DNA from: an uncultured delta proteobacterium
Lineage (GTDB): Bacteria; Desulfobacterota; Syntrophobacteria; BM002
Reading direction: 5' to 3'
NCBI GenBank assembly: GCA_963712115.1
Contig: CAVQGX010000039.1
Coordinates: 88-64,087 of the forward strand
DNA: 64,000 bases
Positions within the stretch are counted from its first letter, which is position 1. Every line of letters begins with the position of its first letter. The notes under the pieces were generated by a model. It saw only the letters and a program-made list of their open reading frames with translations, ran no database searches and was not told the origin of the DNA. Below are positions 109 to 63,540 of the stretch, one piece after another. The position numbers were made by a program, and so were the translations under genes.

Positions 109-1695
109 TCAGTAGGCTGCGGTCTCGATAAAACAACCGCCGCCCGATGCGCCCGGGTTATCTTTCTCAAAATTTGAGACAGAAACAGTTGTTGAATCAC
201 TAGACTGCAAACCGCCGTCATCTGTAACTATCAACTCGAAGATGAGTGGTTTGCCACCACTGTCATCAAAACCTGGAGCCTCAAAGGTCGGTTGATCATC
301 TGTGGGATCGGAAAAGGTAACCGAAGGCCCTGCTACCTGTTTCCACTGATATGATGCAATGCCATCATCAGGATCAGATGAATTTGACCCGTCCAGGGTG
401 ACTGTAGTTTTCTCGAGCACCGTCTGATCAGATCCAGCATTTGCTGTGGGAGGATCGTTCAGCCAGATCACATTGATAATGGCAGTATCCGTTGATTGCA
501 AACTGCCGTAATCGGTCACTGTTAACTCAAAGGTAAACGAATCACCATCTGATCCTACATTCGGTGCCGAGAAGGTGGGTTGAACTGCCTCGGGATTAGA
601 TAAACTAACTGACGGCCCTGTTACCTGTTTCCAGCGATAAAACTCAATACCATCATCAGGATCAGATGAATTTGACCCGTCAAGGGTGACTTTAGCTTCC
701 TCGAGCACCGTCTGATCAGATCCAGCATTTGCTGTGGGTGGGTCGTTTTCCCCGGTAACATTGACAACAGTAGTATCGGTATCTAGCAAACCACCAAAAT
801 CAGCAACCGTTAACTCAAATTTAAGTGATTTTGATTTGCTGTCTAAAACACTAGGGCTCGTAAAGGTGGGTTTAATCGCCCTAGGATTAGATAAACTAAC
901 TGACGGTCCTGATATCTGTTTCCACTGATAAAACTCAATACCGTCATCAGGGTCAGATGAATTTGACCCATCTAGCCTTACTGTAGTTTCCTCGTCCACA
1001 TTCTGGTCAGGTCCCGCATCTGCCGTGGGTGGATCGTTTTCCCCGGTAACATTGACAACAATGGTATCGGTAGCTTTCAAACCACCAAAATCAGTAACCG
1101 TTAACTCAAATTCAAGTGATTTTGATTTGCTGTCTAAAACACTAGGGCTCGTAAAGGTGGGTTTAATCGCCTGAGGATTAGATAAACTAACTGACGGTCC
1201 TGTTACCTGTTTCCAGCTGTAAGAATCAATCCCATCATCAGGATCAGATGAGTTTGATCCATCTAGCCTGACTGTGCTTTTCTCGAGCACCGTTTGATCA
1301 GGTCCCGCATCTGCCGTGGGTGGATCATTACTTTCTATATCAAATACGTGGACTTTCGTCTCATCAGTATCTTTTTTGCCTGAAGTGGATATGACTGTCA
1401 GTTTAAAGGTAAGTGTCACGTCCTTTGAAATCTGAGGGGCAGTGAAACTCGCTATAGCTTCGTCCGCTTTCTGCAATACAACCCGTGGCCCTTTTTTGAC
1501 CTGTTGCCATTGATAAATGTCAATGCCACCTTTAAGCTTCGATTCAGATCCATCCAAAATTACCGTGTCACCCTCATCCACGGTTTGGTCTGGTCCTGCC
1601 TTAGCCTTTGCGAAAGCTTGTGAGGCTGAAAAAGTATGGAAGAGAAAAATGAAGAGGAAAGTGGTTAAGAAACGTGTTTTCATCAACATAACCAT
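109..1695 (-). CDS. Secreted multi-PKD-repeat protein ending in a CFI-box-like C-terminal motif
   Basis: 528-aa ORF with an N-terminal signal peptide (MKTRFLTTFLFIFLFHTFSASQAFA). It has five ~96-97 aa repeats of the type DPPTA[DN]AG[PS]DQTV..LDGSNSSDPDDGI..Y.WKQV.GP, which are PKD/KIAA0319-like Ig repeats. The last four repeats are also near-identical at DNA level, with a period of 288-291 bp. The protein ends GGGCFIETAAY-stop. Confidence 0.8.
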   Translation of the reverse strand: MVMLMKTRFLTTFLFIFLFHTFSASQAFAKAKAGPDQTVDEGDTVILDGSESKLKGGIDIYQWQQVKKGPRVVLQKADEAIASFTAPQISKDVTLTFKLTVISTSGKKDTDETKVHVFDIESNDPPTADAGPDQTVLEKSTVRLDGSNSSDPDDGIDSYSWKQVTGPSVSLSNPQAIKPTFTSPSVLDSKSKSLEFELTVTDFGGLKATDTIVVNVTGENDPPTADAGPDQNVDEETTVRLDGSNSSDPDDGIEFYQWKQISGPSVSLSNPRAIKPTFTSPSVLDSKSKSLKFELTVADFGGLLDTDTTVVNVTGENDPPTANAGSDQTVLEEAKVTLDGSNSSDPDDGIEFYRWKQVTGPSVSLSNPEAVQPTFSAPNVGSDGDSFTFELTVTDYGSLQSTDTAIINVIWLNDPPTANAGSDQTVLEKTTVTLDGSNSSDPDDGIASYQWKQVAGPSVTFSDPTDDQPTFEAPGFDDSGGKPLIFELIVTDDGGLQSSDSTTVSVSNFEKDNPGASGGGCFIETAAY

Positions 1696-1960
1696 AGTTG
1701 TGTTTTATTCAACTGATTAGATATTCAGCACCTATTCTGAGATTACAGAGTGATCTGAAATCGAGGACATTAGAGTGCAGGAATGTGACTTGTGTAATTA
1801 TCTGTCAAAAGTAAGCAGAAATTTGCACATAACCTTCTCAAATTATTATCTAAAAATCAATGAGTGTCAAGGGAGAGAAGCTTTTTTTTGGCAAAGACTC
1901 GATGGTTGAATAGGAGAGAGCGATCTTAACTAATGATGGGTAATGTAAACTGATCTCGAT

Positions 1961-2073
1961 AACTGCGAAAGTGTGGATTCCCTTAATCGCCACTTTCGGG
2001 TCTGGAGCGTATGATACTACATGTTGGGACGGGGCAAAACGGGCGTGAATGTGGATTAAAGTATGTATTCACA
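1961..2073 (+). repeat. Junction element copy 1 (lox/dif-like A and B sites)
   Basis: The A site is degenerate: TGTGGATT-CCCT-TAATCGCCA at 1972-1992. The B site is TGTGGATTA-AAGTATG-TATTCACA at 2050-2073. By eye the ~110 bp are about three-quarters identical to copy 3 (6741..6854). It lies in the gap after the ypfJ stop. Confidence 0.7.
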
Positions 2074-2190
2074 GCTTTGCAGTGATCAAGGTGAGGTTCG
2101 ATTTCCTGTCAGGACCATCGTCGAACCGATTCACGAAGTCTTCGAAACCCTGTCGCGTCTCACTGTTTCCCATTAACATCTCTAACAAGT

Positions 2191-3243
2191 TCATGAGTTG
2201 CCTCCTTTGAAATCTTCTGACAACCCAACCTTCCCTGCACGGGGCATACGAATCGCTCGACTCAGAAAAGAAGCATCCCTGGCGAAGTAAGTTGAATGGG
2301 TCCGTCGCTGGAACAACCATCCCCCCAGGGTGATCAGCCTCCCTCGGCTGGGGCGAATGGTTTCCGGCGGAGAAATATCTCCTAGCCGCTCAGCATTGAA
2401 GGTGTCGCACGCCTGGGGAACGCAGGACTCGAGCCCACGCCGAAACCAGCGCACCCGCTGGGCCGAAGTCCCGTGGGTAAAACCGTCTGGCACCACATAG
2501 CCCTGCGTCCGCCGCTGGATGCGGTCGTCGCCAATGGCGCTGGCTGCGTTCAGGCCTTCCTCGATGTCTCCGGCCTCAAGAATCTGGCGGGTCTTATTGG
2601 CCCGGTAAGCCCAAACCCCCGCGAGACAGTCGGCCTGCAGTTCCATCCTGACGGACAATTGGTTCGTTTCGGAAGGGCTGACCCGTGACCCGAGTGTGCT
2701 CACCTTCTGAGAGATACCCAGAAGGGTCTGGACATGATGGCCCACCTCATGGGCGATCACATAGGCCTGAGCGAAATCCCCCGGAGCCCCGAACCGCGCC
2801 CTCAGGTCTTCGAAGAAGCTCAGGTCGAGGTAGACCTTCTGGTCGAGCGCGCAATAAAAGGGCCCTACTACAGAGCCGGCGATGCCGCACGCCGACTCGA
2901 CAGCCCCCGAAAACAAGACCAGCGTTGGCGGTCGGTACGTCCGCCCCATTTTGCCAAAGGCTTCGTGCCAGACGTCTTCGGTATCGGCCGGGACCACGGC
3001 GACGAACTCCCGCAGTTCGTCGTTAACGCCGACTCGGCCACCCTGCTGAACGGAAACTGAGGGCGTCTGGATTTCTGGTCCTCCCTGCAACAGGACACTC
3101 GGGTCGATACCAAAAAACATCCCGACCAACACGATCACCAAGAGACCAAGCCCGCCTATACCACCTATCTTGGCGCCGCGAGGGATCGCCATTCCCCGGC
3201 GATCTTCGATGTTGTCGCTTTGGCGAGCACCCTTCCATCGCAT
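2191..3243 (-). CDS. ypfJ: YpfJ-family neutral zinc metallopeptidase with an atypical ~63-aa C-terminal extension
   Basis: The N-terminus MRWKGARQSDNIEDRRG matches the characteristic YpfJ start. It has an HEVGHH zinc motif and a family-typical end ...CDTFNAERL at about residue 287. The ORF then runs 63 more codons into AT-richer DNA. The gene body is visibly much more GC-rich than its surroundings. Confidence 0.85.
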   Translation of the reverse strand: MRWKGARQSDNIEDRRGMAIPRGAKIGGIGGLGLLVIVLVGMFFGIDPSVLLQGGPEIQTPSVSVQQGGRVGVNDELREFVAVVPADTEDVWHEAFGKMGRTYRPPTLVLFSGAVESACGIAGSVVGPFYCALDQKVYLDLSFFEDLRARFGAPGDFAQAYVIAHEVGHHVQTLLGISQKVSTLGSRVSPSETNQLSVRMELQADCLAGVWAYRANKTRQILEAGDIEEGLNAASAIGDDRIQRRTQGYVVPDGFTHGTSAQRVRWFRRGLESCVPQACDTFNAERLGDISPPETIRPSRGRLITLGGWLFQRRTHSTYFARDASFLSRAIRMPRAGKVGLSEDFKGGNS

Positions 3244-3634
3244 GTTGTTTTTCCTTTCTATTTATCGGTGTCTCTTGCTCGTCGTATCTGCATAGATCCA
3301 AGCATGAGGAGTGAATCTTGACGTTGTTCCGTTCTCGGAATTCTTTCTGACACCCCGGACCCATTTCAAGAATTGAGGGAATGATACATCCAAGGCACCC
3401 CTTGCTTGGTGTAATACCAGTGATGGCCTACATATTTTTAACTTATAGAAGTACGAACAACCGATCTGGATTAGCGCGCCGAAATAGGAGAATTAAAACT
3501 ATATTTAATATACCCCAAGAGACCAGCTTATGCAAATACATAAGAGCACCATATTACATATCGTTTATCAATAACCCTAAACTACCCGCAGGCAATCAGT
3601 GAGAAAGTGAGGTGGCAGCATGGAGGGGTGGAAG

Positions 3635-3746
3635 CAGAGTGTGGATAACATCCCTTAATTCACACTTTAACCTCTGGGAAGAACACTACCACATCTTGGG
3701 GCAGGTCGGAAAGGGCAAGAGTGTGGATTAAAGTATGTAATTCACA
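3635..3746 (+). repeat. Junction element copy 2 (best-preserved A and B sites)
   Basis: A site TGTGGATAA-CATCCCT-TAATTCACA at 3640-3664. B site TGTGGATTA-AAGTATG-TAATTCACA at 3722-3746. The arms are the same 9-bp inverted repeats, but the 7-bp centres differ. It lies after the stop of the ExeA-like gene. Confidence 0.75.
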
Positions 3747-4636
3747 TTCTTGTCGAACAAACAAGGAACAATACACATAGAAGATAATACTCCGGATACA
3801 AAACTGCAGGAAACTTACCATCCGAACTAGAAGGTCTGAAGCAGAAGACTCAGTATAGTAAGAATTTTGCTCAATTTTTTTAAAGCTCAAAAATATCTAG
3901 TAGGCTGAGACGTAATTTTGACTCTAATTTTCAACTGCCTTCTGGGATGAAGATCCACTCGCAGTATTCGGCTGAGATTTCGACACCACAGTTTGTGAGG
4001 ATATACTCTTCGGAATGGGAATTTTAGATCTGACGTATTGTCGATACTTGTACTTACCAATAATCGAGTAAAGATTATTTTGAAGTGGTGAAGCTAATAT
4101 TGTTCCTACGGTTGTTAGCATCAGTATTAATATTAGGTAAATGGCTTTTCTTTTAAACGGAATAATTTTTTCTATCTGCTTAAGCGCTGGGCGATCTACT
4201 CCACTAAGTTTATCTTCACCGGGTAAACTTAACTCCTTTGTACATTCATTAATGACCCTGCCATTGATACTTTGGATGTCACTTATATATCCAGACAAAA
4301 GGGCATAGTCACAAATAACATTTATTTTGCGAGGATAGCCCTTGGAAAAGGAATATATGCTATGAATTGCCTTTTGGGTGAAAATCTCTCTTCTTCCACC
4401 TGCAATCTTCAGACGATGTTCCACATATTGTTTCGTTTCGTTATTTGTCAAAGGATCTATGTTATGGCAAATGACGATTCTCTGCCTTAGGGCTCTAAGT
4501 GATTGTTTTGATAATAAAGTATTGAATTCACTCTGACCAACGAAAAAAATATTTAATAATTTGGTATCTGGTCGTTCAATATTAGAAATTAATCTAATTT
4601 CCTCTAATAACTCAAATGGAATACTCTGTGCCTCAT

Positions 4637-5913
4637 CACTGCTGTCCGGTTATAAGTAGTTAAAATTCAATGATAATTGATCACAGTTTGGCAACATGTG
4701 TTTTGTTGGTCCTGGGTCAAAGAGTTGCCATATATTTCGCCGACTAAAAAGGTTCAACTGCAGTAATTTAAGGATCTGAGAGAGGCCATAAGTCAGTTTT
4801 GCCCGGAATTTGTAGTAGGCAAGCAGAAGCAGCGTGACGATGGCAATCCAAATTTGTGTCATCACGGCATTCTTACTGGTGCCAAGGAAGCTCTTTATCT
4901 TCAAGTTTTGCTTGATCCACTTGAAAAAGAGCTCCACCTGCCACCTCTCTCGGTAGATATCGGCAATGGTCCGAGCTGAAAGATGAAAGATATTGGTGAG
5001 AAACACATAGTGCTGTCCGGTTTCTGGATCTCGATAGCCGACCCTCCTGAGTTGGAGGGGGCAATCCTTAGCTTTGGCACCCGTAAGCTCGATGGTCTGA
5101 TCCGAGGTCAGGCCCTTTGCCTTGATGACCTTGCGACGCTTAACAACCCTGTAGTTGATCCCTTTTTTTAGCCGGGTGACGAACAAGACCTTTTTGCCGG
5201 TAAGCTTATGCAACCAAGCAAAGTCCAGAAAAGCTCTATCCATAACCACCATGGACAAGGCAGGAAGCCTCAGCAGTTTGGCCACTGTATTGTCAGCTAC
5301 TTTGGCAGTGGTGACTTTGATAAATGCGGGGATGTAGCCGTCATGGTCCAAGAGGGTATGCACTTTGATGCCGCCTTTGGTGGTGCGAAAGGCGGCCCAC
5401 GGGAAAAGCGAAAGACAGAGATCTATCACGGTAGCATCAAATGAGTACAGCTTGTTTTTAAACCGAAACTTCTTTCTCGGCGCATGGGCCGCACATTTGG
5501 CGTACTGGTGGGAAAAGAGAGCTTCAAAGAACTCGGCTGGCCTTTTGTTATTGGCATCGGCAAGAGTGGTCCGCTTCACACTATTCACTCCCAGATGGTA
5601 AAGCTTGGCCCCATTGAATTTGAAATGCTGAACAATATCACGCAAGCTGGCTCTACCAGTGATCTGAGCAAACATCATGACCACAAACTGGCTCCAGCGG
5701 TCCAGGGTGCGATACTTACGCTTGGGTCGAAAGCCGTTTTTCTCGATCTGTCGAAAATCATGTCTGTTAAGAAGATCAAGCAACTGATGGAAGATTGTGT
5801 TAGAATGTGCCATGGCCTGAATCTCCTTTCGCGTCAGTGGGTTAGCGGTAACCGCACTATAACACGAAAGCCTGGATTCGGGCCTATTCTACTTTCTTAA
5901 CTGGACAGCAGTG
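4637..5913 (-). mobile_element. IS4-family insertion sequence (1277 bp) with 16-bp terminal inverted repeats and a 9-bp target-site duplication
   Basis: The left inverted repeat is CACTGCTGTCCGGTTA at 4637-4652. The right inverted repeat, reverse-complemented, is CACTGCTGTCCAGTTA at 5898-5913. The direct repeat GTGCCTCAT occurs at 4628-4636 and 5914-5922. There is a single transposase ORF inside. Confidence 0.9.
4650..5813 (-). CDS. IS4-family DDE transposase (DUF4372-type N-terminus)
   Basis: 387-aa ORF. The N-terminus FHQLLDLLNRHDFRQIEK..DRWSQFVVMMFAQITGRASLRDI and the C-terminal YRERWQVELFFKWIKQNLKIK are typical of IS4-family transposases. Confidence 0.85.
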   Translation of the reverse strand: MAHSNTIFHQLLDLLNRHDFRQIEKNGFRPKRKYRTLDRWSQFVVMMFAQITGRASLRDIVQHFKFNGAKLYHLGVNSVKRTTLADANNKRPAEFFEALFSHQYAKCAAHAPRKKFRFKNKLYSFDATVIDLCLSLFPWAAFRTTKGGIKVHTLLDHDGYIPAFIKVTTAKVADNTVAKLLRLPALSMVVMDRAFLDFAWLHKLTGKKVLFVTRLKKGINYRVVKRRKVIKAKGLTSDQTIELTGAKAKDCPLQLRRVGYRDPETGQHYVFLTNIFHLSARTIADIYRERWQVELFFKWIKQNLKIKSFLGTSKNAVMTQIWIAIVTLLLLAYYKFRAKLTYGLSQILKLLQLNLFSRRNIWQLFDPGPTKHMLPNCDQLSLNFNYL

Positions 5914-6613
5914 GTGCCTCATCAATTATCAGTAAAGTTTTCTTTCCATTTTTATACAGAAAATGTAAATACTTAGTAAAAGTTGAAATGAAATCTCCTT
6001 TATTGTCAAATTTTCTATTTATACCGAGGCTATGGGCCAAATAATTGAAGAATTCTAAACGCTCCAATTTTGGATCCGAAATTGTGGCAACGAGAACATT
6101 ATCCTCCAGACCTTTTACAAGAGCGTTTACTAGTGTGGTCTTGCCAGTTCCTACATCACCGGTGAGTAAAAGAAGTCCAACATTATTCAAAATGCCATAC
6201 TTTAGAAAAGCCAAAGCTTCTTTATGCTTTTCACCCAACCAAAGAAATTTTGGGTCCGGACTTATCGAGAAAGGCTTTTCAGTCAAATGGTATTGTGCTT
6301 CGTACATTACTAGATGCTTTTTCCACTCCGCAGTTATCTCTTAACCTTTTCTTGTAAACACTAGAAAGAAAGCGACGGCTATGAAAAGAGTAATTACGTA
6401 AGAGTCTGTCATAATAGAGCCCTTTTTTAAAAGAGTGGAGCTATCTATCCCTTATTGCTAGTAAACTAGTACAACAACTATGCCATAAGGTTGAATTGGA
6501 ACAATCATCATTTATTTCAATTACTTAAATAACACCATGGAAATAATTTGTATCCAGATCATGGCAATCACGGTTATTTTTTGGGAAAATTTATGCCAAT
6601 TAGTAGGATTTTT

Positions 6614-6637
6614 TTACGTTTTTACGTGCATACGTAA
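6614..6637 (+). promoter_or_regulatory. TACGT-repeat motif (candidate transcription-factor site), copy 1
   Basis: TTACGTTTTTACGTGCATACGTAA. By eye it matches the reverse complement of 10019..10040 (GCTTACGTTTTTACGTATATACG) at about 20 of 22 positions. It lies about 300 bp upstream of the ExeA-like start. Confidence 0.2.
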
Positions 6638-6740
6638 AGATATGAGTACTGCACGTAGGCAATTAGGGGAAAAACTGAGTGGGCAATACGGACGGGTTTG
6701 AGTGCATATGGGATCGAAAAATCTGAAGACGCCCCCCAGT

Positions 6741-6854
6741 GCAAAACTGCGGATTACATCCTGAAATCACCACTTTCGGCCTTGGAGAGCATAATACTAC
6801 ATGGAGAGGTGGTCAAAAAGGGGCGTTACTGTGCATTAAAGTATGTAATCTTCA
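6741..6854 (+). repeat. Junction element copy 3
   Basis: A site TGCGGATTA-CATCCTG-AAATCACCA at 6748-6772. B site TGTGCATTA-AAGTATG-TAATCTTCA at 6830-6854. It ends 25 bp from the LuxR-family stop codon. Confidence 0.7.
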
Positions 6855-7378
6855 GTCAGTCCAGAAGGTCAACGTAGCTTAGGTCTGAGTGTGGAGGTTT
6901 TCCTTGGCCCAAAGGGCTGCCTCCAGGCGATTGGTGACCTTGATCTTTTTGTATATGTTGTAAAGATGGGTCTTGACTGTATGACGGCTAATATAAAGTT
7001 TTTCACCTATTTCCATGTTCATTGCTCCCCGTGCAACCAAATTCACTATCTCGATCTCTCTTCCCGAAAGCACAGATGTTTCATTCCCAGATAATACTTT
7101 TGCGTTCTCAATTTCGGGAATGAATTTAGACAGAATCTCACGGGAGATCCAAATCTCCCCTTTCAAGAGTGCACGAATTCCTTTATCAAGGTTGCCCGGG
7201 TGATCATTGGCATAAAAGATGCCCTTTACTCCTCTTATCACGAGCTCTTCCTCAATTCTCAGCCCTCGGATCAAGTTGAAGACCGCCATTAAGTCCGAGG
7301 TGCCCAAATCACAATAGCAAGCTTCAACCTCAAGGAAGAGTCTTTCGTGGTCTTTGGCAAAGCAGTCGAGGAGTACTA

Positions 7379-8497
7379 GTATCTAGTTGCATAAATCAGA
7401 GTAATTTTTACTGAGCCTTTTCGGATAAACTTCTCGCTTTCGCCACTCGAAAGGGGCAGCCTCTCTGTTATAGGTGGCAACGAAAAGGTCGATAGCATTA
7501 CGAACCTGTTGTGGTGAGGTGAAACTAGCACCTTTGAGCGTTCTGCGGCTGAGGATGCTGAACCAAATCTCAATCTGGTTTAGCCAGGAGGCGTGGGTTG
7601 GCGTGTAGTGAAAGCACACTTTTTTGTGGCGAGCCAACCAGACATCGTGCTTTGGTTTATGGGTGTTGAGATTATCCAAGATCACGTGAATCTCCTGGTC
7701 GGGATAGTCAGCAATGACTTCGTTCATAAAATCGAGAAACTCCCGACGTCGCCGCCGTTTGTAGTGGCCGGCTTTGACCTGTCCTGTGGCCACATTCAAG
7801 GCGGCGAACAGGGTGGTGGTTCCGTGTCGCTTATAGCCGTGGCTGAAACCGGTAAGGGCTTTGCCATTGGGAAGCCTAAGCCACCCCTGGGCTCGCTCCA
7901 GTGCCTGGATGTGAGGCTTTTCATCCACACAGATCACAACCGCACTGTCAGGGGGCTCCAGGTAAAGACCAACGATGTCTGCCGCCTTCGGCGCAAATTC
8001 AGGGTCTGTACTGATACACCACGATCGTCGACGCTGCAAATGGATGCCATGCCGCCTGAGCACCCGCCACACCTGGTGTTTGGAGACATCTCCCAGCGTC
8101 TTGGCCAATAAGCTCCCACTCCAGGTGGCATGCCCGGCGGGAGGTTCACCGTCAACTGCCTCCAAGATCCTTCTGTCGGTGGTATCGTCATAGACCTTGC
8201 GAGCACCAGAACGCGGTGCATCTTGCAGAGCTGCCATACCGTCTTTGGCAAAGCGAGTTCGCCATTTGCTCACGGTAGCCGGCCGCACTTTAAGGTTCTC
8301 GGCAATCACCTTGGTAGCTTCTCCTTTCGCAGCCGAGAGAATAATCTGCGCTCGCAATACCAACCGCTGTTCGGTCTTGCTTGAGCGAACCCACTGCTCC
8401 AGCGTTCGCTTGTCCTCTGCTGTCAATTTGATGGGGATTGCTTTTCTACTCATGCAACCCCATATACTATATAGCGCTAAATTGTGCAACTAAATAC
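7379..8497 (-). mobile_element. IS630-family insertion sequence with a TA target duplication
   Basis: The imperfect terminal inverted repeats are GTATCTAGTTGCATAAATCAG (7379-) and, reverse-complemented, GTATTTAGTTGCACAATTTAG (-8497), matching at 17 of 21 positions. TA is present at 7377-7378 and at 8498-8499. The reconstructed empty site restores the host reading frame. Confidence 0.8.
7383..8453 (-). CDS. IS630-family transposase (HTH plus DDE_3)
   Basis: The ORF spans 7383..8489, and the likely start is MSRKAIPIKLTAEDKRTLEQW at 8453. Motifs HGTTTLFAALNVATGQV, VILDNLNTHK and HASWLNQIEIWFSIL are typical of IS630/Tc1-like DDE transposases. Confidence 0.85.
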   Translation of the reverse strand: MSRKAIPIKLTAEDKRTLEQWVRSSKTEQRLVLRAQIILSAAKGEATKVIAENLKVRPATVSKWRTRFAKDGMAALQDAPRSGARKVYDDTTDRRILEAVDGEPPAGHATWSGSLLAKTLGDVSKHQVWRVLRRHGIHLQRRRSWCISTDPEFAPKAADIVGLYLEPPDSAVVICVDEKPHIQALERAQGWLRLPNGKALTGFSHGYKRHGTTTLFAALNVATGQVKAGHYKRRRRREFLDFMNEVIADYPDQEIHVILDNLNTHKPKHDVWLARHKKVCFHYTPTHASWLNQIEIWFSILSRRTLKGASFTSPQQVRNAIDLFVATYNREAAPFEWRKREVYPKRLSKNYSDLCN

Positions 8498-8932
8498 TAG
8501 CTTGGGTTTAACACTCTCTTGATCATCCAATTCAACCACATCGTCGATAGTCTCTTTGACTACACAATTCGCACCTATCTCGGCCTCCAAAAAGGACGCC
8601 AGAAGCTCATTATTCACCCTACACGGTCCGATTACATATATCGTCCAGGATACTGAGTTCACTTGTCTCTTATCCTAACAGATTCACATGGGAGACTGCG
8701 GCAAGAGCTCTGTCTCCTCACCTGGAAGGTCAGGTTCCTCCCACTTGACTTTGCCGTTGAGCCAACCTCTCAGGAGAGGCTGCCATAAGTAATCCTCGTA
8801 TAATCTGAGTCACCATTTAAAACGACCGCCGAGTCGGCACCACAAATGCAACGGATTTAAGTTATACTGCAACCATACTCTCATAGTCACTGCCATTTCG
8901 GTGTATTTTGATTGTTATGCCAGCAGTTTCGT

Positions 8933-9172
8933 TCAATCATCAATGGTGTAACACCGTGTCCGCTGCAAACCCGGGATTCTATAGTCAGTTGAGTCTTCCT
9001 GGGTTAATAGGCAATGATGCAGTCCTTCTTTGAATTGATCTAGTTCATCACACGAAGCTGCGCACTCCAACTTGTTCTTTTCCAGACGTTCGCATTTAAG
9101 ACAGGGACTTCGTTTTTCTACCATAGGAGCCTTTCGGTTTCTCACCAAAATACTCTGCCTTGTTGTGTGCAA
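8933..9172 (-). CDS. Hypothetical small Cys-containing protein
   Basis: 79-aa ORF with a possible internal start at MVEKRSPCLKCERLEKNKLECAASCDEL. I recognised no family. It is co-oriented with its neighbours. Confidence 0.3.
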   Translation of the reverse strand: MHTTRQSILVRNRKAPMVEKRSPCLKCERLEKNKLECAASCDELDQFKEGLHHCLLTQEDSTDYRIPGLQRTRCYTIDD

Positions 9173-9378
9173 CAGAATCTATCGACATTCATGCTAAAGC
9201 TCCAGCAAACAATAATCATGCCAAATTAAGTAACTAAATTTATTTGGAAATATTTCAAAGGATTAGTCGATATACATCAGAAATTAGAAGGAACAAGATG
9301 GGAAACCAAGGTTATAAGGTTGGGAAAAAACTACCACATTGTGTTATTGATGAGTAATTCAACTTCGCTTCGATCAAA

Positions 9379-9480
9379 GCAAAAGTTGTATTACATCCCT
9401 TAATTCACAATCGCCTAGGTTACAGACTGGCACAAATTGCTGTGAGTGGTCAAAGCGGGGTTATCGAAAAAAACCCCACT
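9379..9480 (+). repeat. Junction element copy 4 (A site only)
   Basis: GTTGTATTA-CATCCCT-TAATTCACA at 9385-9409. The downstream ~70 bp align loosely with copies 2 and 5. There is no B site. It lies 75 bp beyond the PilZ stop. Confidence 0.65.
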
Positions 9481-9554
9481 GATGAGTCCAGCGATCCAAG
9501 GCCAACAGGGGTAAAGCCCTAGGGTATGGCAATGCATAAAAATGGAGGTGGAAG

Positions 9555-9893
9555 CTACAACCCTGCTTCTGTAGACTGGGCCTCCAAGATCAAGCTAATC
9601 CGGGGGCAGTCTATGAACTTAACTCCCATGCCACGGCTAATTACCTCGTCATTAGGGCGAGGCACACGTGACCAGACAACCTCAGCATGGGAGTTAAACG
9701 ATGGGTTGGAAGGAAGTTTCGCAATGACAATGATCCTCTCTCCGGGCTCAAGCGGTTTTTGGCAACGGATAAAGGCGCCATGCAGGCTAATATTCTCCGT
9801 TACGCCTTCCGTAACGCTTGTTGGAGTGACCATCCTGGCAAGTAATGTGATTGGCATTCTAGGGTGTTGCCGGTTGTCGATATCGTGAGCCAC
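9555..9893 (-). CDS. PilZ-domain protein (c-di-GMP receptor)
   Basis: 112-aa ORF with both PilZ signature motifs: RQHPR (RxxxR) and NISLHG ([D/N]xSxxG). Confidence 0.8.
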   Translation of the reverse strand: MAHDIDNRQHPRMPITLLARMVTPTSVTEGVTENISLHGAFIRCQKPLEPGERIIVIAKLPSNPSFNSHAEVVWSRVPRPNDEVISRGMGVKFIDCPRISLILEAQSTEAGL

Positions 9894-10018
9894 AGTCTTT
9901 CTCTTTTAATGCAGAAATTCTCTTTCTGGAATTGACTATGCTGAGAGAACGAATAGGCAAGTGACGTGCCGATAGTTATGGAAAAGCTAATTACAGGTAA
10001 TGCTGTCTATTTTCGTGC

Positions 10019-10040
10019 CGTATATACGTAAAAACGTAAG
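10019..10040 (-). promoter_or_regulatory. TACGT-repeat motif, copy 2 (inverted relative to copy 1)
   Basis: The forward sequence is CGTATATACGTAAAAACGTAAG. It lies about 126 bp upstream of the PilZ start. Confidence 0.2.
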
Positions 10041-10150
10041 CATCTTAGAACAATCTGACTAACTCTGTAAATCGGCAGGATGCATGATTTTGGTTTTAGT
10101 ACCCTCTAATACCAGGGAGAAACCAAGGTGGTTAGTACGGACAGGTGAGA

Positions 10151-10260
10151 GCAAACTTTATATTACATCCCTTAATTCACACTCCGCTGGAATTTTTTGT
10201 GGCACAAGATATGGGGCAAGGTCAAGGGGTAGTTTTGGTGAAGAAAAAAGAAGCGCCCCC
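10151..10260 (+). repeat. Junction element copy 5 (A site only), lying between the first cassette-like gene and the integrase operon
   Basis: TTTATATTA-CATCCCT-TAATTCACA at 10157-10181. The downstream GGCACAAGATATGGGGCAAGGTCAAGGGG aligns with copies 2 and 4. Confidence 0.65.
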
Positions 10261-10467
10261 ACCGAGGCACCCATCCCCGATGGGGGCAAGATTCGAGATT
10301 AGGCAGGGTAAAGGTGGGATCCCTGCCGAGGGGCACCGAGATCAAAATAGCATAGCTGGGGTAATTTCTGTCAATGTGAAAAAACCACCATTTTTTATCG
10401 AGATTTACTCTTTGTTACATACCATGTTGACAATATATATAATATCATATATATTATCATTACATCA

Positions 10468-10653
10468 ATGAAAGGCGGTGATCGTTTGAAACAGGTAATA
10501 GTAAGAGTTCCGGACAGCTTGCACCGCGAACTGAAGGAAGAAGCCAGGAAGGAGGGGGTTAGCCTCAATCAGCTATGCCTAACTAAATTGGCTAGACCCC
10601 TGGATTGGTACCGGCAAAAATCTATGGAAAATATGAAAGGAAAGGAGGATTGA
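10468..10653 (+). CDS. Ribbon-helix-helix (HicB/Arc-like) DNA-binding protein, a possible recombination directionality factor
   Basis: 61 aa. VIVRVPDSLHRELKEEARKEGVSLNQLCLTKL is a typical RHH strand-helix-helix pattern. Its stop codon sits 1 bp before the integrase start. Confidence 0.6.
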   Translation: MKGGDRLKQVIVRVPDSLHRELKEEARKEGVSLNQLCLTKLARPLDWYRQKSMENMKGKED

Positions 10654-10654
10654 A

Positions 10655-11890
10655 ATGGCAATCTTAGCAGAATGCCCAAGGCGTCATAACAAGCAGAGCA
10701 CCAGAAACAAGTCGTGCTCTGGCAAAAACGGGTGTGGTCTTGACCTGGACAAGGCAAAGAGATCCAAGAAGGTCAAATATTGGATCCAGTACAGGCTACA
10801 GGGTGGAAAACAGCGCAAGGAATACGTGGGTACGTCCATAGAGGAAGCCCGGGATGCTGATGGTAAGCGAAGAGTACAGAAGCGAGAAAACCGTATCTTT
10901 GATATTCTGCCGGAAGCGAAAATGACTTTCAGTGAACTCGCCGGGTGGTATCTGGAGCTTGAAAAAGTCAAAGCCCTGTCGTCATATTGGCGAGTCCAGA
11001 TTGCACTGGATAGCTTCAATTCTGAATTTGGTCATTTGCTGGTTCGTGACATAGGGTTGAGTCAGATAGAGAACTACCAACAGAAAAGGTTAAACATGGG
11101 CATGGCCCCCGGTACGGTTGACCGTGAAGTTGGTGAGATCAAGACCATGATTTACAAGGCTCATGCTGATGGCCTCCTTGGTGACCGAATCGCCATGACT
11201 TTCAAAAAGGTCAAAAAACAGCTTAGGAGAGGCTCAAATGCCCGGGAACGCACCATGACCACAACTGAGTATCTGAGGCTTACGACAGGCAAGCACAAAG
11301 TCAAAACAAAGACGGGCAAAGAGAAACTCGAAGATAACTCGCCGGCCCACCTGAAACAGATCCTTATAGTCGGATTTTACACCGGCATGCGCAAAGGTGA
11401 GCTTTTGAGTTTGAAGTGGTTACACATTGATCGTGAGAAGGGATTTATCAGGCTGCCAGTTGAAATGACCAAGGAAGGGAAACCCAAGAGTATCCCTATT
11501 AACCGGCACGTCAGAGAAGTACTGACCAGTCAGCCTCGCTCGCTGCACCACGATTATGTTTTCACCTATCGCCGGCAGCGGATCAAGAATCTTAGACGCT
11601 CTTTCGAGTCTGCATGCAAGAACGCGGGTATTCCTCACGGTCGCAAAGCGGAGAATGGACTTGTATTCCATGACATTCGAAGGACGGTCAAGACCAATAT
11701 GCTGAGGGCCGGTGTGGACAAGGCCTTAAGGGATACTATCCTGGGTCACAGCCTGCAGGGGATGGATGCTTACTACCTGAAGCCGAGTGGTGAGGATTTG
11801 AAGGCGGCAATCGACAAGTACACCACCTGGATGGATGCCCAAATCGCAAATGTTACCCAAACCGTTACCCAAGAGGCAGAAAAGGGCTAG
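10655..11890 (+). CDS. Tyrosine-type site-specific integrase
   Basis: 411 aa. The C-terminal catalytic region has FHDIRRT...ILGHS...DAYY (R..H..R..Y pattern). The N-terminus is Cys/His-rich (CPRRHNKQSTRNKSCSGKNGC). It lies immediately beside the 3' end of a tRNA gene. Confidence 0.85.
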   Translation: MAILAECPRRHNKQSTRNKSCSGKNGCGLDLDKAKRSKKVKYWIQYRLQGGKQRKEYVGTSIEEARDADGKRRVQKRENRIFDILPEAKMTFSELAGWYLELEKVKALSSYWRVQIALDSFNSEFGHLLVRDIGLSQIENYQQKRLNMGMAPGTVDREVGEIKTMIYKAHADGLLGDRIAMTFKKVKKQLRRGSNARERTMTTTEYLRLTTGKHKVKTKTGKEKLEDNSPAHLKQILIVGFYTGMRKGELLSLKWLHIDREKGFIRLPVEMTKEGKPKSIPINRHVREVLTSQPRSLHHDYVFTYRRQRIKNLRRSFESACKNAGIPHGRKAENGLVFHDIRRTVKTNMLRAGVDKALRDTILGHSLQGMDAYYLKPSGEDLKAAIDKYTTWMDAQIANVTQTVTQEAEKG

Positions 11891-11918: not shown

Positions 11919-11995
11919 TGGTCGGGACGACTGGATTCGAACCAGCGACTTCTGCGTCCCGAACGCAGCGCTCTACCAGGCTGAGCCACGTCCCG
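11919..11995 (-). tRNA. tRNA-Pro(CGG): tRNA-Pro (anticodon CGG), CCA encoded
   Basis: The reverse complement reads CGGGACGTGGCTCAGCCTGGTAGAGCGCTGCGTTCGGGACGCAGAAGTCGCTGGTTCGAATCCAGTCGTCCCGACCA. It has a 7-bp acceptor stem, anticodon stem CTGCG/CGCAG with loop TTCGGGA, and a GGTTCGAATCC T-arm. Confidence 0.9.
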
Positions 11996-35693: not shown

Positions 35694-38600
35694 CTATCCT
35701 TGACCGGAAAGGAGTTGCCAGTTTTCCTTAACGATGGTCCAGCGGTTGTCATCGTATCGAAGATGAAGAGTTTCTGTGCCCAAGTCTCTATGGTTTGCTG
35801 TCTGATAACTTTGGGTGAAAGTGACCACTGCATTGGAGCCGTTAGCTTGAACTTGCATATCACTGATCTGAACATTCCGTTTTGCAGAACGTCCAAAGAT
35901 TTCCTGCTTGTAACGCTTCCAGGCGTGATAATGCATCTCATCTGTTTCGAAGTGCTGATGGTAGCACGCGATATAGCCTATAAAGTCTCCTTTTTCCCAG
36001 GAGCTACGCCAATTTTCAACGAAATGCTGTATCTCGACCTCAACCGGTTCGGTCATGGCGGGAAGGGACTCGTAGGATTCCTCTAAAATGGCCCAATTAC
36101 CCTCGTAATTAGAGAGCTGAAACGTTTTCAAGCCGAGCCCCTTGTAGTTCTTGGTCTGATAGCGCTGTCTAAAGGTGACCAACGCGCGCGAACCGTTAAG
36201 TTCAACCCTAATGTCGCTGATTTTTACATCCCTCTCCGGAGTACGGTCAAACAAGTCCTGTTTGTAGTCTTTCCAGGCCTGGATATTCATGCCACGTGCT
36301 TTGAAGTCCGGGTGGTAACAGCCAATGTAAGCCTGCAAGTCACCCTCTTCCCAGGAACGGCGCCATTTCTCAACGAAAGGTTCTATGGATGATTCTGGAG
36401 ATAAGGCTTGCGCTTCAGCCGGCTTCTTCTCGGCGACAGTCCGATCCTCTGCAACTGGAGTACGGGCAACTACCACCGCCTCTCCGGTCGGTTGTCCTTC
36501 AGTGGACTGATCTGGTGGCTTGATCGTCTCTTTGCCGCGCGTTTGGTATGCAACCGGTTGGTCAGATTTGATTTCTTTTTGTTCAAGGATTTGCCCTTTT
36601 GGATGAGTCTCTATCGATCCAGTTCTTTGGGATTGAGCTGCAGGAGATACATCAGAGCCAACCGATTCTGTGAGCTTCTTTGTAGCTGGGGATGCAGGAA
36701 GAATAGGCTTTTTCTGTGCTACGTTCTGATCCCTGAACTTTTTCTGATCTGGACGGCTATGAATTGAAGACGTGATTTTTGGATAATTGTGCCAAACAAC
36801 ACCGGCAAGAGCGAGAATGCCGACAAATAGAAGCAGGCTAATTGCAGTTCGTTTCCCCTTGGCTTCAACCGCAAGCCTGATTTTGCCAATGATATTTTGA
36901 AAAGTACGAAGAGGCTGGCGAACTAATTCATGCCAACGAGAATGAGGGCCTGATTTTTCGCCGCGATCCTCATCACTATAGTAGTAGTCTGTCCGGTAAC
37001 GATAGAAATCAGGGGCCACATCGGGTTTAACATTGTTGAGAATTACACCAAGTACATTGGTGTTTACATTTTCAAGCTGTATCTTGGCTCTCTTTAGAAT
37101 TCCTCGCCCTATTCGGCCCACTTCGTAAACCAGGATGACGCCATCCACCTCAGGAGCCACCTCGAAGGCATCAGCCACGGGCAGAACCGGCGGTGTATCT
37201 ACAATTATGATTTCGTAGTGTTCCCTTACCTCATGGAGAAACTCCTTGAACCTGGGTGATCTAAGGATTTCAGCAGGGTTGAGCAGACTTTGCCCCGCAT
37301 TGATGATATGCAAATTATCCAGCCCCGGTGTTTTCAGGATGTCATCAATGCCAAACTCGCCCAGCATTAAATCAATGATGTTGTTAGTTACGTTTTGCCA
37401 GCCGTTATCAGTCTGCACGGCGTTGAAAGTCAAAGTTGTGTCGAGTACAATAGTGTTCTCCGGCCTTGTTTCCAGTTCACCTGTTCCCACGATGAAGTCT
37501 GTAAGCCCTGGTTGTCTCTCCAGGCCGAAAATATGGTGGACTGTTGGTCTGCGCAAATCAGCGTCTATCAAGAGGACTTTTTCTCCAGCCTGGGCCAGAC
37601 TCAGGCTCAGGTTGACCACATTGTAAGTTTTCCCTTCCTGCAGGGAAGAACTGGTAATCAGGTAAACTTTCGCCTTCTTATCCGTACGGATAAATTGGAG
37701 ATTCGTCCTCAATGAGCGGTAAGCTTCTGACACGGGAGAACGCGGGGCAAAGTGGGTTACCAGCGGCTCACCTCTTGGTTTAACCCCGGTTTCATCTTTC
37801 TCAGTAAAGGCAAATTCCTGAACAGATGGGATAATGCCGAGTACAGGTATACCCAGAATCTCCTCCACATCTTCGATGGTGCCCAAGGAGGTGTCCATGG
37901 TCTCTACAATCAAAGCAAGCACCAGGCCGACAACGAGTCCAATTATTCCGCCAGTGACGGTGTTGATCAGAGTGTTAGGCATATTTATAGGATTACTTGG
38001 CTCCAGAGCAGGTTTGATGATTTTAACCTCTTCTATTAGGCCCGATTCCTGGATCATCACTTCTTGATACTTGGATTTGAGCTGGGCAAGAAGATCCCCG
38101 TTTAGCTCCACCTCGCGGCGCAGCCTGGCGAGGGTAAGAACACTGTCCGGAATTGCCATTGCCTGACTCCGTGCTGTTTCGAGCCGTCTTTCCCAAGTCC
38201 TGCAAGCGACCGTCCATTGTGGTCAGCATGGACCTCAGTTCTTTTTCCATTTCTGAAAGCAACATTCGCCAGCTCCGCATCCACCGCGTCTACTTCGGGG
38301 TGCTCCTTGGTGTAGTCATTGAGCAGGACTTCGCGCCGCAAGCTGAGGTCTCTGAATTTGGCTGTGAGCTTGGCTAGCTGGGGAGGAGGGCTTCTCGACA
38401 AAGAATGCTTCTTGGCTGACAATCTGTTTCCCCTCACGGAATTGTTTGAAGCAGTCCAAGCTGTCTTTTGACTTCAGCCTCTTCTTTGCTGTAGATCGGC
38501 CACTTCATTCTCGAGGCTGATAAGACGATTAATGGCAGCTGTGGTCTGAGCGTCAATGGCTACCAGTTTGGTGTCTTTTTCGTAATTGCGAAGATTTTGT

Positions 38601-39180
38601 TCAGCTTCCTGCAGGCGTCTTTCAACAACTTCCAACTGCCTCTCAATGAACTCCCTGGTTTCTCTGACCTTCTTGTTCCGTCTCATCAACGTTATTCTGG
38701 CGGTAGACTTCGGCAACTGTGTTGGCGAGCAGCGCAGCCTCAGTGGCCTTTGAAGAGTTAGCGGTGATGTTTATGATGTTGGTGTTACCCTCCTGCTCGG
38801 TTTCGATCTGCGATTTGAGTCCATTTACTACTTCGAGATATTTATGGATACTGCGGACCTGGGCTGAGGAGATATTTTCAGGGATCAGCCCCATCTGTCG
38901 TGCTGATTGTTCGATGACTGGAAAACTGGTAATAATCACCGCCTGAGTTGCCACGTTGTCCCAAGAAGTCCAGGAGACGGTGCCGAGGAGTAAGGTGGTG
39001 AGATCAGTGGCTTTTTCTACTTTGACGGCGGAGGTCGCCTCGTAGATGGGTTCAGGAGTGCGAATCACCGCAAAGAGATAGCTGAAGACGGTGAACAATT
39101 ATGGTCGACAGGATGACAACAGTTCTGCGTTTGCGGATGATCCGCCAGTAATCGCGTAGATTTATGTCATATTTTGCCAT
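35694..39180 (-). pseudogene. Wzc-type chain-length-determinant/BY-kinase paralogue with a frameshifted N-terminal domain. An 821-aa ORF remains open.
   Basis: The start region 39121-39180 is identical to that of the intact paralogue (45023-45082). Fragments 38643..39098, 38474..38716 and 38102..38437 match consecutive parts of the intact N-terminus in three different frames. By manual alignment I see single-base indels near 39096, 38683, 38260 and 38187, and a net +2 in 38420-38480. ORF 35694..38159 keeps the kinase domain (Walker A SLQEGKT, LLIDADLRRP, IIVDTPPV), the Tyr cluster YRYRTDYYY, a further TM helix and two NTF2/SnoaL-like repeats. Confidence 0.75.
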
Positions 39181-45640: not shown

Positions 45641-45853
45641 AGGTATTATAAAGAAGAAAAGGGAAGGGGACATAGCCCGGACATTGCATCAATTGCAGTC
45701 GCGAGACCGTGAAGATGGGCTTGCCACCGGGCAACCACAGGGTGTTGGACCTGAGGCGTACCTGAACGGTACGTCGCAAGGTGCGACACCCGAGGACGCC
45801 CTGAAGAACGGCCATATCCGCGGTCGCAGCATGTGATTGATGAAACGTCCGGG

Positions 45854-46498
45854 CTAGAATATCAAGGAGAGGGTGAAGATGGCCAGGTTTCCCAGTGCAT
45901 GGATGGTGATGGGGACAATCAGGCTGCCGCCGAACTCATAGGCCAGAGCAAAGAGAAGCCCCCCCACCAAACGGGTGACGGGGATTCCATGACTAATGGG
46001 GTGGCAGAGTACGAAGATCAGGGTGCTGAGAATAAGGGCCACAATTACCCCCCATCGTCGCAAAAAACCATAGAGTATTCCCCGAAAGAAGACCTCTTCC
46101 GCTACGGGTCCTAAAATCCCGCCAACAATGAAAAAAAGAACAAGATCACCGGTCTGCGTGGGTAGGCGGGCTTTTATTAAGGTGAGAGGATTTATGGAGG
46201 CAGCGAACAATCCAACACAGGCAACGGAACCGATCGCTCCAAAACCGGCCGACCAGAGCAGCCCTTTTTTCAAACCAGAGACCATCTCGGATCGAGCCAA
46301 GCCTATGGAAGGTAATCCTTTCCCCCAGGTCACAACAATCAGGATAATCAGGAGTATTTGGAGGAGACGGGCGCCAGCCAGAATAAGCATGGGGAGGTAG
46401 CCGGACTTTGAAGTCACCACCCATGTACCCAGTTCTACGGCAATTACTGCAGAAAGGCAGAAGAACAGGGTTCTTAATTCGATTTTCTTTGCTTCCAT
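45854..46498 (-). CDS. CPBP-family intramembrane glutamic endopeptidase (CAAX/Abi)
   Basis: Motifs GPVAEEVFFRG (EExxxR), FVLCH (FxxxH) and IHALGN (HxxxN). The likely start is MEAKKIELR at 46498; the track ORF starts at 46531. Confidence 0.8.
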   Translation of the reverse strand: MEAKKIELRTLFFCLSAVIAVELGTWVVTSKSGYLPMLILAGARLLQILLIILIVVTWGKGLPSIGLARSEMVSGLKKGLLWSAGFGAIGSVACVGLFAASINPLTLIKARLPTQTGDLVLFFIVGGILGPVAEEVFFRGILYGFLRRWGVIVALILSTLIFVLCHPISHGIPVTRLVGGLLFALAYEFGGSLIVPITIHALGNLAIFTLSLIF

Positions 46499-53849: not shown

Positions 53850-53891
53850 GTGAATTCTCCAGGGAGCGATTTTAAATACATCTTATTTTTT

Positions 53892-61626: not shown

Positions 61627-61656
61627 CGTCATGATAGAAAATGTCAGGGTTAAATC

Positions 61657-63513: not shown

Positions 63514-63540
63514 AAAGTCTTCTCTGACAAGAGATAAAAT

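Follow-up and report, generated by a model that had tools for sequence, protein, structure and literature searches.

Dispersed palindromic repeats with fixed polarity at gene 3' ends in a clade of uncultured Desulfobacterota

Five repeat copies beside a tRNA-Pro gene

The DNA analysed here, hereafter the window, is a stretch of 64,000 nucleotides (nt) from contig CAVQGX010000039.1 (assembly GCA_963712115.1) of an uncultured delta proteobacterium. Near its left end, a series of minus-strand genes is accompanied by five copies (c1 to c5) of a short non-coding element with palindromic cores, and an operon encoding a ribbon-helix-helix (RHH) protein and a tyrosine integrase diverges from these genes beside a tRNA-Pro gene. 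The five copies belong to a polar intergenic repeat family that is dispersed through a clade of related genomes, and the anatomy, distribution and probable nature of this family are reported below.

All five copies lie on the plus strand, three as doublets of an A and a B site and two as A-only singlets. The degenerate doublet c1 (1931-2112; profile E = 8e-35) has an A core at 1972-1992 that has lost 4 nt and a B core at 2050-2073 that has lost one, and carries the flank module U1 on both sides in mirror orientation (1931-1971 and 2074-2112), as read directly against the family listing. The best-preserved doublet is c2 (3590-3758; E = 7e-37), with cores at 3640-3664 (A) and 3722-3746 (B) and the central box CACTACCACATCTTGGGG; the flank module U2 precedes it at 3590-3639. 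Doublet c3 (6736-6866; E = 4e-37) is again degenerate, notably in its A core (6748-6772), and its B core lies at 6830-6854. The B starts are offset from the A starts by 78, 82 and 82 nt in c1, c2 and c3, respectively. Both singlets, c4 (9374-9466; 42 bits) and c5 (10143-10223; 57 bits), hold an exact 20-mer core, at 9390-9409 within the A site 9385-9409 and at 10162-10181 within the A site 10157-10181, followed by the inner box 2 at 9429-9442 (GGCACAAATTGCTG) and 10201-10214 (GGCACAAGATATGG). The initial annotation, which was made from the letters of the window alone, had listed five co-oriented elements, and every coordinate it gave matches the sequence. With up to three mismatches, the 25-nt pattern gave 7 strand-matches in the window (0.08 expected) and the 20-mer ATTACATCCCTTAATTCACA gave 5 (0.00 expected). 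A profile of the three doublets recovered full copies at E values of about 1e-35 and the partial copies c4 and c5 at about 0.01-0.03; in the remaining 54 kb of the window it found no credible copy past 10.3 kb (other matches, E≥2.6).

The gene calls around these copies were supported by Pfam and NCBIfam. From left to right they comprise a PKD-repeat protein (109-1695, minus strand), a YpfJ-type Zn peptidase (2191-3243, minus), a PEP-CTERM-type AAA ATPase gene on the minus strand that is split (3924-4451 and 5897-6307) by an IS4-type insertion (4452-5896, minus; transposase 4650-5813), a LuxR/GerE regulator gene split (6879-7307 and 8477-8662) by an IS630-type insertion (7376-8500, minus; transposase 7383-8489), an open reading frame (ORF) of 79 aa, and a PilZ gene (9555-9893, minus). 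Two cargo genes, those for the AAA ATPase and the LuxR/GerE regulator, are inactivated by these insertion sequences; the terminal repeats of the IS630-type element, and likewise the IS4 ends, are unrelated to the A and B cores. Past the minus-strand stop codons, c1 lies 118 nt beyond YpfJ, c2 178 nt beyond the ATPase, c3 25 nt beyond LuxR and c4 146 nt beyond PilZ, in agreement with the range of 25-180 bp reported earlier, and c5 lies between the PilZ start and the RHH-integrase operon. The sharp differences in composition that had been noted between these genes were also borne out (ypfJ, 54-63% GC; ATPase gene, 36-39% GC). The operon, outside the repeat, occupies 10468-11890 on the plus strand and encodes a HicB/Arc-like RHH protein of 61 aa and the integrase of 411 aa; the tRNA-Pro(CGG) gene follows at 11919-11995 (minus) and is the likely attachment site of the integrase's island.

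Anatomy, polarity and dispersal of the family

The family was collected by a scan of one genome per species with the query ATWACATCCCTTAATTCACA, which yielded at least 94 blocks from about 25 related Desulfobacterota metagenome-assembled genomes (MAGs); the fetched loci are labelled by L-numbers (L001 and so on). These blocks, 0.52 Mb in all, contained 106 exact cores and about 200 profile-detected copies, and they came almost entirely from MAGs labelled Desulfobacteraceae, Syntrophobacteria(les), Deltaproteobacteria or Desulfobacterota. In the MAG BM002 at least 24 contigs carried the repeat and in another MAG at least 14, while blocks were located at 0.40, 1.18 and 2.74 Mb of the closed chromosome CP070689 and at 1.65 and 1.86 Mb of CP070746. 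The initial annotation had held that an element scattered genome-wide and unlinked to recombinases would speak against its cassette proposal, and a genome-wide scatter of this kind is what CP070689 and BM002 display. Multi-kb blocks common to several repeat-bearing MAGs were about 83-92% identical at the nucleotide level, and several of these MAGs therefore appear closely related. The range of the family is limited to one clade of uncultured Desulfobacterota, of genus or family rank. Five contigs (L040, L049, L054, L056 and L062) were found in MAGs labelled Flavobacteriales, Dehalococcoidales, Dadabacteria or "archaeon"; typical family copies stand in them between flanks of Desulfobacterota type, a 2-kb stretch of L040 matches L030 at 91% identity, and all five are probably mis-binned.

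Eleven of the strong copies overlapped a predicted ORF and the rest were intergenic; the match in L082 was a chance coding match. A link to phages was rejected after a scan of viral contigs gave only two matches, both chance coding ones, and a literature search with the core 16-mer found no paper. The exact YpfJ protein of the window is also on record on a 1729-nt Logan contig (ERR12037369), whose ends, judged from the position of the gene, would fall inside c1 and c2 (window positions of about 2010-3738), a further hint of assembly breaks at repeats.

An alignment of 96 A-type single ends was nearly gapless, with the core and box 2 conserved. The consensus core has a 9-7-9 layout (13-7-13 with flanks), TGTGGATTA-CATCCCT-TAATTCACA. 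Its 7-nt centre is highly conserved (CATCCCT or CATACTT) and asymmetric, which makes each site polar. The inner arm and the centre are near-invariant, as is the stretch ATTACATCCCTTAATTCACAC, and the outer arm (aaAGTGTrg) is weakly conserved, with about 0-0.6 bits of information at most positions. In non-exact family copies a second conserved core was recognized, ATTACATACTTTAATCCACA, which is the reverse complement of the B site. Because A (ATTACATCCCTTAATTCACA) and the reverse complement of B agree at 21 of 25 positions and have similar inner flanks, we regard A and B as the inverted ends of one unit. The sites themselves are thus as first described, with shared inverted arms, and only their relation has to be corrected: they are inverted-repeat partners, and the impression of the same arms in the same orientation arose because each site is itself palindromic.

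The ends of the unit are inverted and about 30 bp long; one reads (aaaGTGTGG)ATTACATCCCTTAATTCACACTTT, and the other has CATACTT and TCCACA instead. About 21 nt inside each end lies the inner box GCACAAGATRTTG, of the form CAA-N4-TTG, which by its sequence resembles an IHF half-consensus. Doublet sizes are discrete. Core starts were 97 nt apart in at least 9 copies from different genomes (including c2 and c3), and larger doublets measured 153 nt (±1) from core to core in 5 copies, the additional 56 nt being a central terminator-like hairpin with flanking runs of A and T. The length of the doublet spacer is kept although its sequence has diverged to about 50% identity. Single ends, such as c4 and c5, are common in the family, and many copies, c1 and c3 among them, are visibly decayed. 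Clustering of the flanks separated the two sides of the core: on the inner (D) side 68 of 96 copies fell into seven clusters, and on the outer (U) side 63 of 96 were singletons, with a few recurrent modules (U1 to U4). The core is therefore the outer end of a repeated unit, which reaches about 50-190 nt and extends to one side of the core only. Neither TA nor any other direct target-site duplication was visible in the outward flanks or the doublet sequences.

A sigma-54 promoter was considered for the "TGGCAC...TTG" box and rejected, since the spacing is wrong by one or two bases and the GG lacks conservation. The U2 module of c2 contains a 12-codon mini-ORF (MEGWKQSVDNIP plus stop) at 3620-3658 on the plus strand, with a strong Shine-Dalgarno sequence (GAGGTG) 5 nt upstream, that runs into the A core and takes the TAA of the core as its stop. 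Its frame is intact in about 7 of 11 U2-type copies of other genomes and its peptide is poorly conserved; a coding basis for U2 was discarded, the ORF being broken in about 4 of the 11. The same applies to U1, for which no conserved ORF ended at TGATGAG and none started in the complement.

Neighbouring copies within a block were co-oriented in 31 pairs and opposed in 2. In 73 of 89 cases (82%) the D-side gene had its 3' end toward the element, and in 54 of 90 (60%) the U-side gene had its start there, which is about what gene co-directionality alone would give. Between co-directional genes the two element orientations stood at 37:6, and convergent gene pairs were slightly enriched. In doublets the B end faced the tail of the upstream gene in 15 of 18 cases, and the arrangement with A at a gene head and B at a gene tail outnumbered the reverse by 9:0. 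The repeat has a strict polarity at gene 3' ends; this is a direct observation, as are its anatomy, its dispersal and the breakpoints described below. The upstream genes are ordinary and diverse, with 84 Pfam families in 73 ORFs (PilZ seven times; also OsmC, MscL, ABC transporters and oxidoreductases), and neither a transposase nor a recombinase was among the 25 upstream-gene Pfam families listed. By tblastn with the PilZ protein of the window, PilZ genes were present in 18 of the 94 loci listed, 9 of them with the element just downstream. Many copies lie beyond a hairpin-plus-T-run terminator of the upstream gene's own.

Synteny breakpoints and adjacent recombinases

Breakpoints were taken from an all-against-all BLAST of the blocks, using high-scoring segment pairs (HSPs) of at least 300 nt and at least 80% identity. 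No HSP crossed a core by 100 nt on both sides. Internal HSP ends fell at cores in 26 cases, with left-side homologies stopping at +21 to +23 and right-side homologies starting at -7 to -1, while in several locus pairs multi-kb collinear blocks ran across ordinary intergenic regions. A 1461-nt unit containing a GGDEF gene, with cores at both ends, was 95% identical between L001 and L090 (two MAGs) and was surrounded by unrelated DNA in each. Three loci (L074, L077 and L083) had about 440-600 nt in common, comprising a methyltransferase gene, U1 and the core, and then continued into three different D sides, that of L083 being the one also found in L046. In the sampled cases a flank plus core was always joined to a different partner. 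These comparisons are subject to the caveats that any conserved repeat ends a BLAST alignment at itself, that some pairs are paralogues, that MAG contigs may be chimeric at repeats, and that the sample comprises the 94 blocks listed, which were ascertained by the exact core.

The integrase beside c5 has PF00589 as its only Pfam domain, preceded by an N-terminal extension, and is one of a large family of integrases that are about 400 aa long. It passes no curated NCBIfam model, and none of integron type (best, NF040815, with 49.5 bits against a cut-off of 220), as expected from the earlier remark that it does not look like IntI. Its operon ends 29 nt from the 3' end of the tRNA-Pro gene, the usual layout of an island integrase; an attachment-site repeat was sought and not obtained, as the 3' half of the tRNA had no match of at least 12 nt elsewhere in the window. 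We conclude that this enzyme is an ordinary integrase whose tRNA-Pro island is decaying and either carries the repeats or was colonised by them.

Homologues with 54-60% identity were retrieved from other organisms. The layout of a small RHH gene followed by the integrase recurs in L098 and L101, and in L099 and L100 the RHH gene is divergent; in L098 the operon diverges from a run of minus-strand cargo genes. No core-like repeat was present within 10 kb of any of these homologues (L098-L101). L101 has, at 183-620 and upstream of its RHH-integrase pair (integrase 60% identical), three repeats of about 27 nt (AAGGATTGCCCCGATTTGAAGGGGTTT) with start spacings of 71 and 340 nt, which may be a short CRISPR-like array. 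Conversely, an integrase-like ORF occurred in only 2 of the 94 blocks listed, L091 and L031. The occurrence of the repeat is therefore tied to the host clade and not to the family of the integrase, and the initial proposal of an integron-like platform run by the 411-aa integrase fails with 92 of the 94 listed blocks lacking such a recombinase and the homologues lacking the repeat.

Beyond a core of L091 come an RHH gene, a degraded integrase with 37% identity and a tRNA-Leu gene. L031 has a degraded and distant integrase no more than 135 nt after a core, and the U side of c5 is homologous to this L031 core. L031 also holds, at 2271-5842, a homologue of the PKD-repeat gene of the window, tail-to-tail with the degraded integrase, the pair being bracketed by two cores. 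Compared with the window, L031 keeps the PKD-plus-core and core-plus-integrase adjacencies, and the intervening 8.5 kb are absent. In L095, whose integrase is 85% identical to that of the window, a diverged core lies about 155 nt upstream of the small gene. Three independent recombinase genes (window, L091 and L031) are thus immediate D-side neighbours of a core, each divergent from minus-strand genes, an arrangement for which we would estimate a rough chance probability of the order of 1e-3. These recombinases are mutually distant (at most 37% identity) though the 20-mer beside them is identical, and because enzymes so different should not share a 20-bp specificity we do not read the cores as their substrates. 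The adjacency may instead reflect cores that mark the boundaries of variable DNA, or that serve as landing sites, by analogy with dRS3 in Neisseria.

Next to c5, at 10225-10410 on the minus strand and outside the core repeat, lies a conserved non-coding module with a TTGACA box and a pair of GC-rich hairpins, GGCAGGG..CCCTGCC and GCCCCCA..TGGGGGC, the latter leading into a run of T on the minus strand. Copies also accompany cores in L042 (2901-2984), L092 (5765-5878) and L104 (12-84); the module has no Rfam match, and is probably of a terminator or small-RNA-like kind. Elsewhere in the window, a second and unrelated dispersed repeat was noted at 45673-45856, a GC-rich imperfect palindrome of about 185 nt (self-match on the opposite strand, 68%) that at least 13 of the loci fetched from other MAGs also contain, at 76-88% identity; the genomes that hold the family described here thus hold a second palindromic repeat family. 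The window further contains a duplication (36978-39180 and 42887-45082, offset by about 5.9 kb) with segments 81-100% identical (repeat families D2-D4, D6, D8, D12, D16 and D18), and, at 53889-54648 and 61536-63676, GC-rich hairpin repeats with four copies each of the CCCCTCCCCTGGCGGGAGGGG and CCCTCCCCCGTCAAGGGGGAGG types, another short repeat family.

Interpretation and relation to known systems

We favour the reading that the elements of the window belong to a family of mosaic palindromic intergenic repeats with a high copy number, and assign it a probability of roughly 0.55. A kinship with REP sequences or miniature inverted-repeat transposable elements (MITEs) had been listed among the alternatives in the initial annotation, and the dispersal and the doublet anatomy make it the best-supported one. 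In such a family a trans-encoded protein would recognise the duplex cores. With REPIN/RAYT, Correia and NIME/dRS3 elements as models, the doublet would be, or would once have been, a unit that is mobile or recombinogenic but not autonomous; single ends would be its remnants or products of recombination. Exchange between directly repeated cores could then delete, duplicate or re-join gene-sized segments, which would explain both the stop of synteny at cores and the differences in composition between the units of the window. The window itself would represent a decaying tRNA-Pro island, hit by two insertion sequences, in which five family members sit at the ends of compositionally unrelated genes.

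Among known repeats, REP, BIME and REPIN sequences share with this family that they are short, over-represented extragenic palindromes with many copies per genome, clustered after gene ends, and with mosaic linker modules (PMC3116915). REPINs are inverted doublets with discrete spacings and variable spacers, and singlets are common (PMC3116915); the unit described here is likewise an inverted doublet at discrete spacing (97 or 153 nt) with a spacer of kept length and variable sequence, and with frequent singlets. They differ in that the cores here are AT-rich and of 9-7-9 layout, as against GC-rich stems, that no compensated hairpin was detected, that no RAYT match was obtained in a weak test with the E. 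coli RayT query, that the polarity relative to transcription is strict, and that singlets keep a perfect core.

Correia elements (CREE) of Neisseria resemble the family in their intergenic position, in their length of about 100-190 bp, in the inverted repeats of about 26-30 bp at their ends and in their number of at least 100 copies per genome (PMC9778887; PMC5039591). They also occur in two size classes, of which the longer has an IHF site, and have been implicated in rearrangements (PMC9778887). In both families the size classes differ by a central segment of about 50 bp; the elements here have the CAA-N4-TTG box and, in the larger class, a central hairpin. An outer-end 8-mer, GTGGATTA, is also shared, a weak likeness only; it falls in the least-conserved arm here. 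The 26-bp Correia repeats (TATAGTGGATTAA...) are otherwise unrelated to the ends described above; the present family shows no TA duplication, belongs to another host phylum, and has single ends with mosaic partners far more commonly. NIME/dRS3 repeats, palindromes of 20 bp on either side of mosaic modules, number in the hundreds, act as integration sites of mobile elements and are implicated in rearrangements (PMC9778887). The likeness to them is one of architecture only: a palindromic 20-mer (ATTCCC-N8-GGGAAT there, ATTA-N7-TAAT within TGTGGATTA-N7-TAATTCACA here) flanks mosaic repeat modules in intergenic arrays. The sequences are unrelated, and the centre, unconserved there, is here conserved, asymmetric (CATCCCT or CATACTT) and polar.

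Several points weigh against this reading. Locus pairs that have one flank plus core in common never share the other side, which passive decay of repeats does not predict, and RecA exchange, with 22-30 nt of identity to work on, would seem too slow to have removed all synteny across cores from closely related genomes. In flank-pair searches over about 100 cores we found no empty site or insertion polymorphism with both flanks conserved. A search for an autonomous parent element returned, between inverted cores, ORFs for an M23 peptidase, a response regulator and similar proteins, and no transposase; phmmer with E. coli RayT (E≤10) found no RAYT in the window and about 0.6 Mb of loci, a weak test since RAYTs are divergent. 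Unlike in REPINs, no hairpin with compensatory changes was detectable, and conservation of the ends is lowest at their outermost bases, which is unusual for the terminal repeats of cut-and-paste elements. The constancy of the spacer length at about 50% sequence identity makes selection on the unit more plausible than a recent selfish expansion. Finally, as the loci were picked by the exact 20-mer, conservation within the 20-mer is not measurable, and most loci are fragmented MAG contigs.

The main alternative, rather unlikely but kept alive by the breakpoints, is that the cores are site-specific recombination sites of a chromosome-wide shuffling of cassettes. Here a trans-encoded recombinase would exchange DNA within the CATCCCT spacer, so that any left unit could be joined to any right one and directly repeated cores would excise gene-sized circles. 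It retains some weight because RecA-type exchange on 22-30 nt seems too slow. By sequence, the consensus TGTGGATTA-CATCCCT-TAATTCACA would fit a generic tyrosine-recombinase core site with its 9-7-9 layout, but the outer arm has little information and the repeated unit is one-sided. The recombination idea of the initial annotation fits the direct orientation of neighbouring copies (31:2), the ending of homology at cores, the recurring GGDEF unit of L001 and L090, the single U side that leads into three D sides in L074, L077 and L083, the contrasts in GC content between the window units, and the three unrelated recombinases on the D side of cores, with a diverged core kept in place in L095; the role it gave to the adjacent integrase is largely refuted. 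The recombinases beside cores are too dissimilar for one site and are missing from nearly all listed loci, the genes are ordinary chromosomal ones, many with a terminator of their own between stop codon and core, and repeats end BLAST homology in any case, on contigs that are perhaps chimeric. Alleles lacking one unit and recombinant junctions, both proposed at the outset as checks, were looked for. No pair of X-core-Z and X-core-Y-core-Z alleles, that is, no unit present in one and absent from the other, was found among the roughly 100 cores. Nor did the metagenomes contain a recombinant c4/c5 junction: a scan with a degenerate 37-mer gave 7 contigs, all of them other family members.

If shuffling of this kind took place, the modules between dif sites in Acinetobacter, whose exchange needs matching spacers (PMC13141974), would be its functional analogue, since they too are gene-sized, lie between short recombinase-type sites and occur in differing contexts. 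However, pdif sites are 28-bp sequences of 11-6-11 layout with distinct XerC and XerD arms in alternating orientation, whereas the sites here are 9-7-9, direct in 31 of 33 pairs, chromosomal and dispersed rather than on plasmids, and have no Xer arm of the TTATGTTAAAT type in the core. Integrons resemble the family in their co-oriented ORF-plus-site units; in three loci a tyrosine recombinase diverges from the array, and integrase-less arrays occur here as well, comparable to the CALIN of integrons. The family differs from them in that there is no IntI-type integrase, no RYYYAAC/GTTRRRY box and no conserved single-strand fold, and in that the genes are ordinary chromosomal ones with their own terminators and the sites are not confined to an integrase platform. 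The boldest form of the shuffling hypothesis, in which hundreds of direct 9-7-9 sites at gene ends with heterospecific A and B centres would be the crossover sites of a chromosome-wide, platform-independent shuffling of single genes (many of them c-di-GMP or signalling genes) in Desulfobacterota, appears to us somewhat less probable again.

We consider it doubtful, to a slightly greater degree still, that the cores are binding sites of a host DNA-binding protein, a nucleoid-associated protein or global regulator acting at gene boundaries, which are kept by selection and are not mobile. Palindromic cores would suit such a protein, as would the two cores and central box held at fixed spacing through a diverged spacer, the exact conservation of the core between unique flanks, the strict polarity relative to transcription, the recurrent PilZ neighbours and the failure to find RNA structure. 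Against this, the sites come after terminators and mostly toward gene 3' ends (82% on the D side, with 60% gene heads on the U side), the adjoining genes have no common theme among their 84 Pfam families, many copies have decayed, and the breakpoints at cores are left unexplained.

That the element acts as RNA, either as a 3'-untranslated-region (3'-UTR) stabiliser or terminator of the upstream gene or as a multi-copy small RNA of the plus strand, is very improbable. The fixed polarity at gene 3' ends would accord with it, as would the central or adjacent hairpin followed by a T-run in many copies and the G-T wobbles in the A and B hairpins, which favour the plus strand. Yet Rfam 15 at gathering thresholds matched only the tRNA-Pro in the whole window, and at E≤5 it gave only two chance snoRNA matches within 1700-10500, away from the elements. 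RNAalifold found no consensus pair on either strand for the 96 single ends; for 14 doublets it gave no plus-strand consensus and, on the minus strand, only a weak one of -3.8 kcal/mol without compensated pairs. Changes in the outer arm have no matching changes in the inner one, z-scores of single-strand DNA folding were -1.5 to -2.3 for doublets and positive for single ends, and the core is usually past the terminator of the upstream gene. With these results an RNA family was rejected, and neither the covariation that the initial annotation had suggested looking for nor its small-RNA and 3'-UTR or terminator alternatives found support. Its view that the sites are not attC-like holds, as the R''/R' boxes (RYYYAAC/GTTRRRY) are absent from all five window copies on either strand and there is no conserved fold. 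Neither a structured RNA nor an attC-like folded strand is supported, and the cores look, from their sequence, like double-stranded protein-recognition sites.

The strict integron-like model, with the sites as att, arm or cassette sites of the adjacent RHH-integrase pair, is hardly credible: the window geometry is repeated in L091 and L031 and a diverged core is kept beside the close homologue in L095, but the integrase is a generic one that passes no integron-integrase model and adjoins its tRNA as ordinary island integrases do, its more distant homologues lack the repeat, the repeat abounds where there is no integrase, and the cores are without attC R''/R' motifs.

If the reading as mosaic palindromic repeats holds, the family would be a well-defined addition to the few known bacterial interspersed palindromic elements (REP/BIME/REPIN, Correia, NIME), and its hosts belong to a phylum of which almost all knowledge comes from metagenomes. 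For work on these organisms, the repeat fragments assemblies, many contigs ending in it; it marks synteny breakpoints, and it is useful for recognising contigs of the clade, including mis-binned ones. Should the shuffling of single genes prove true, chromosomes would have, with a new type of site, their own equivalent of dif modules or integron cassettes. Synteny across the cores is wholly lost between genomes that are about 83-92% identical in shared blocks, and the repeats may drive the turnover of accessory signalling genes; if this turnover is enzyme-mediated, it would represent a new mechanism of gene shuffling.

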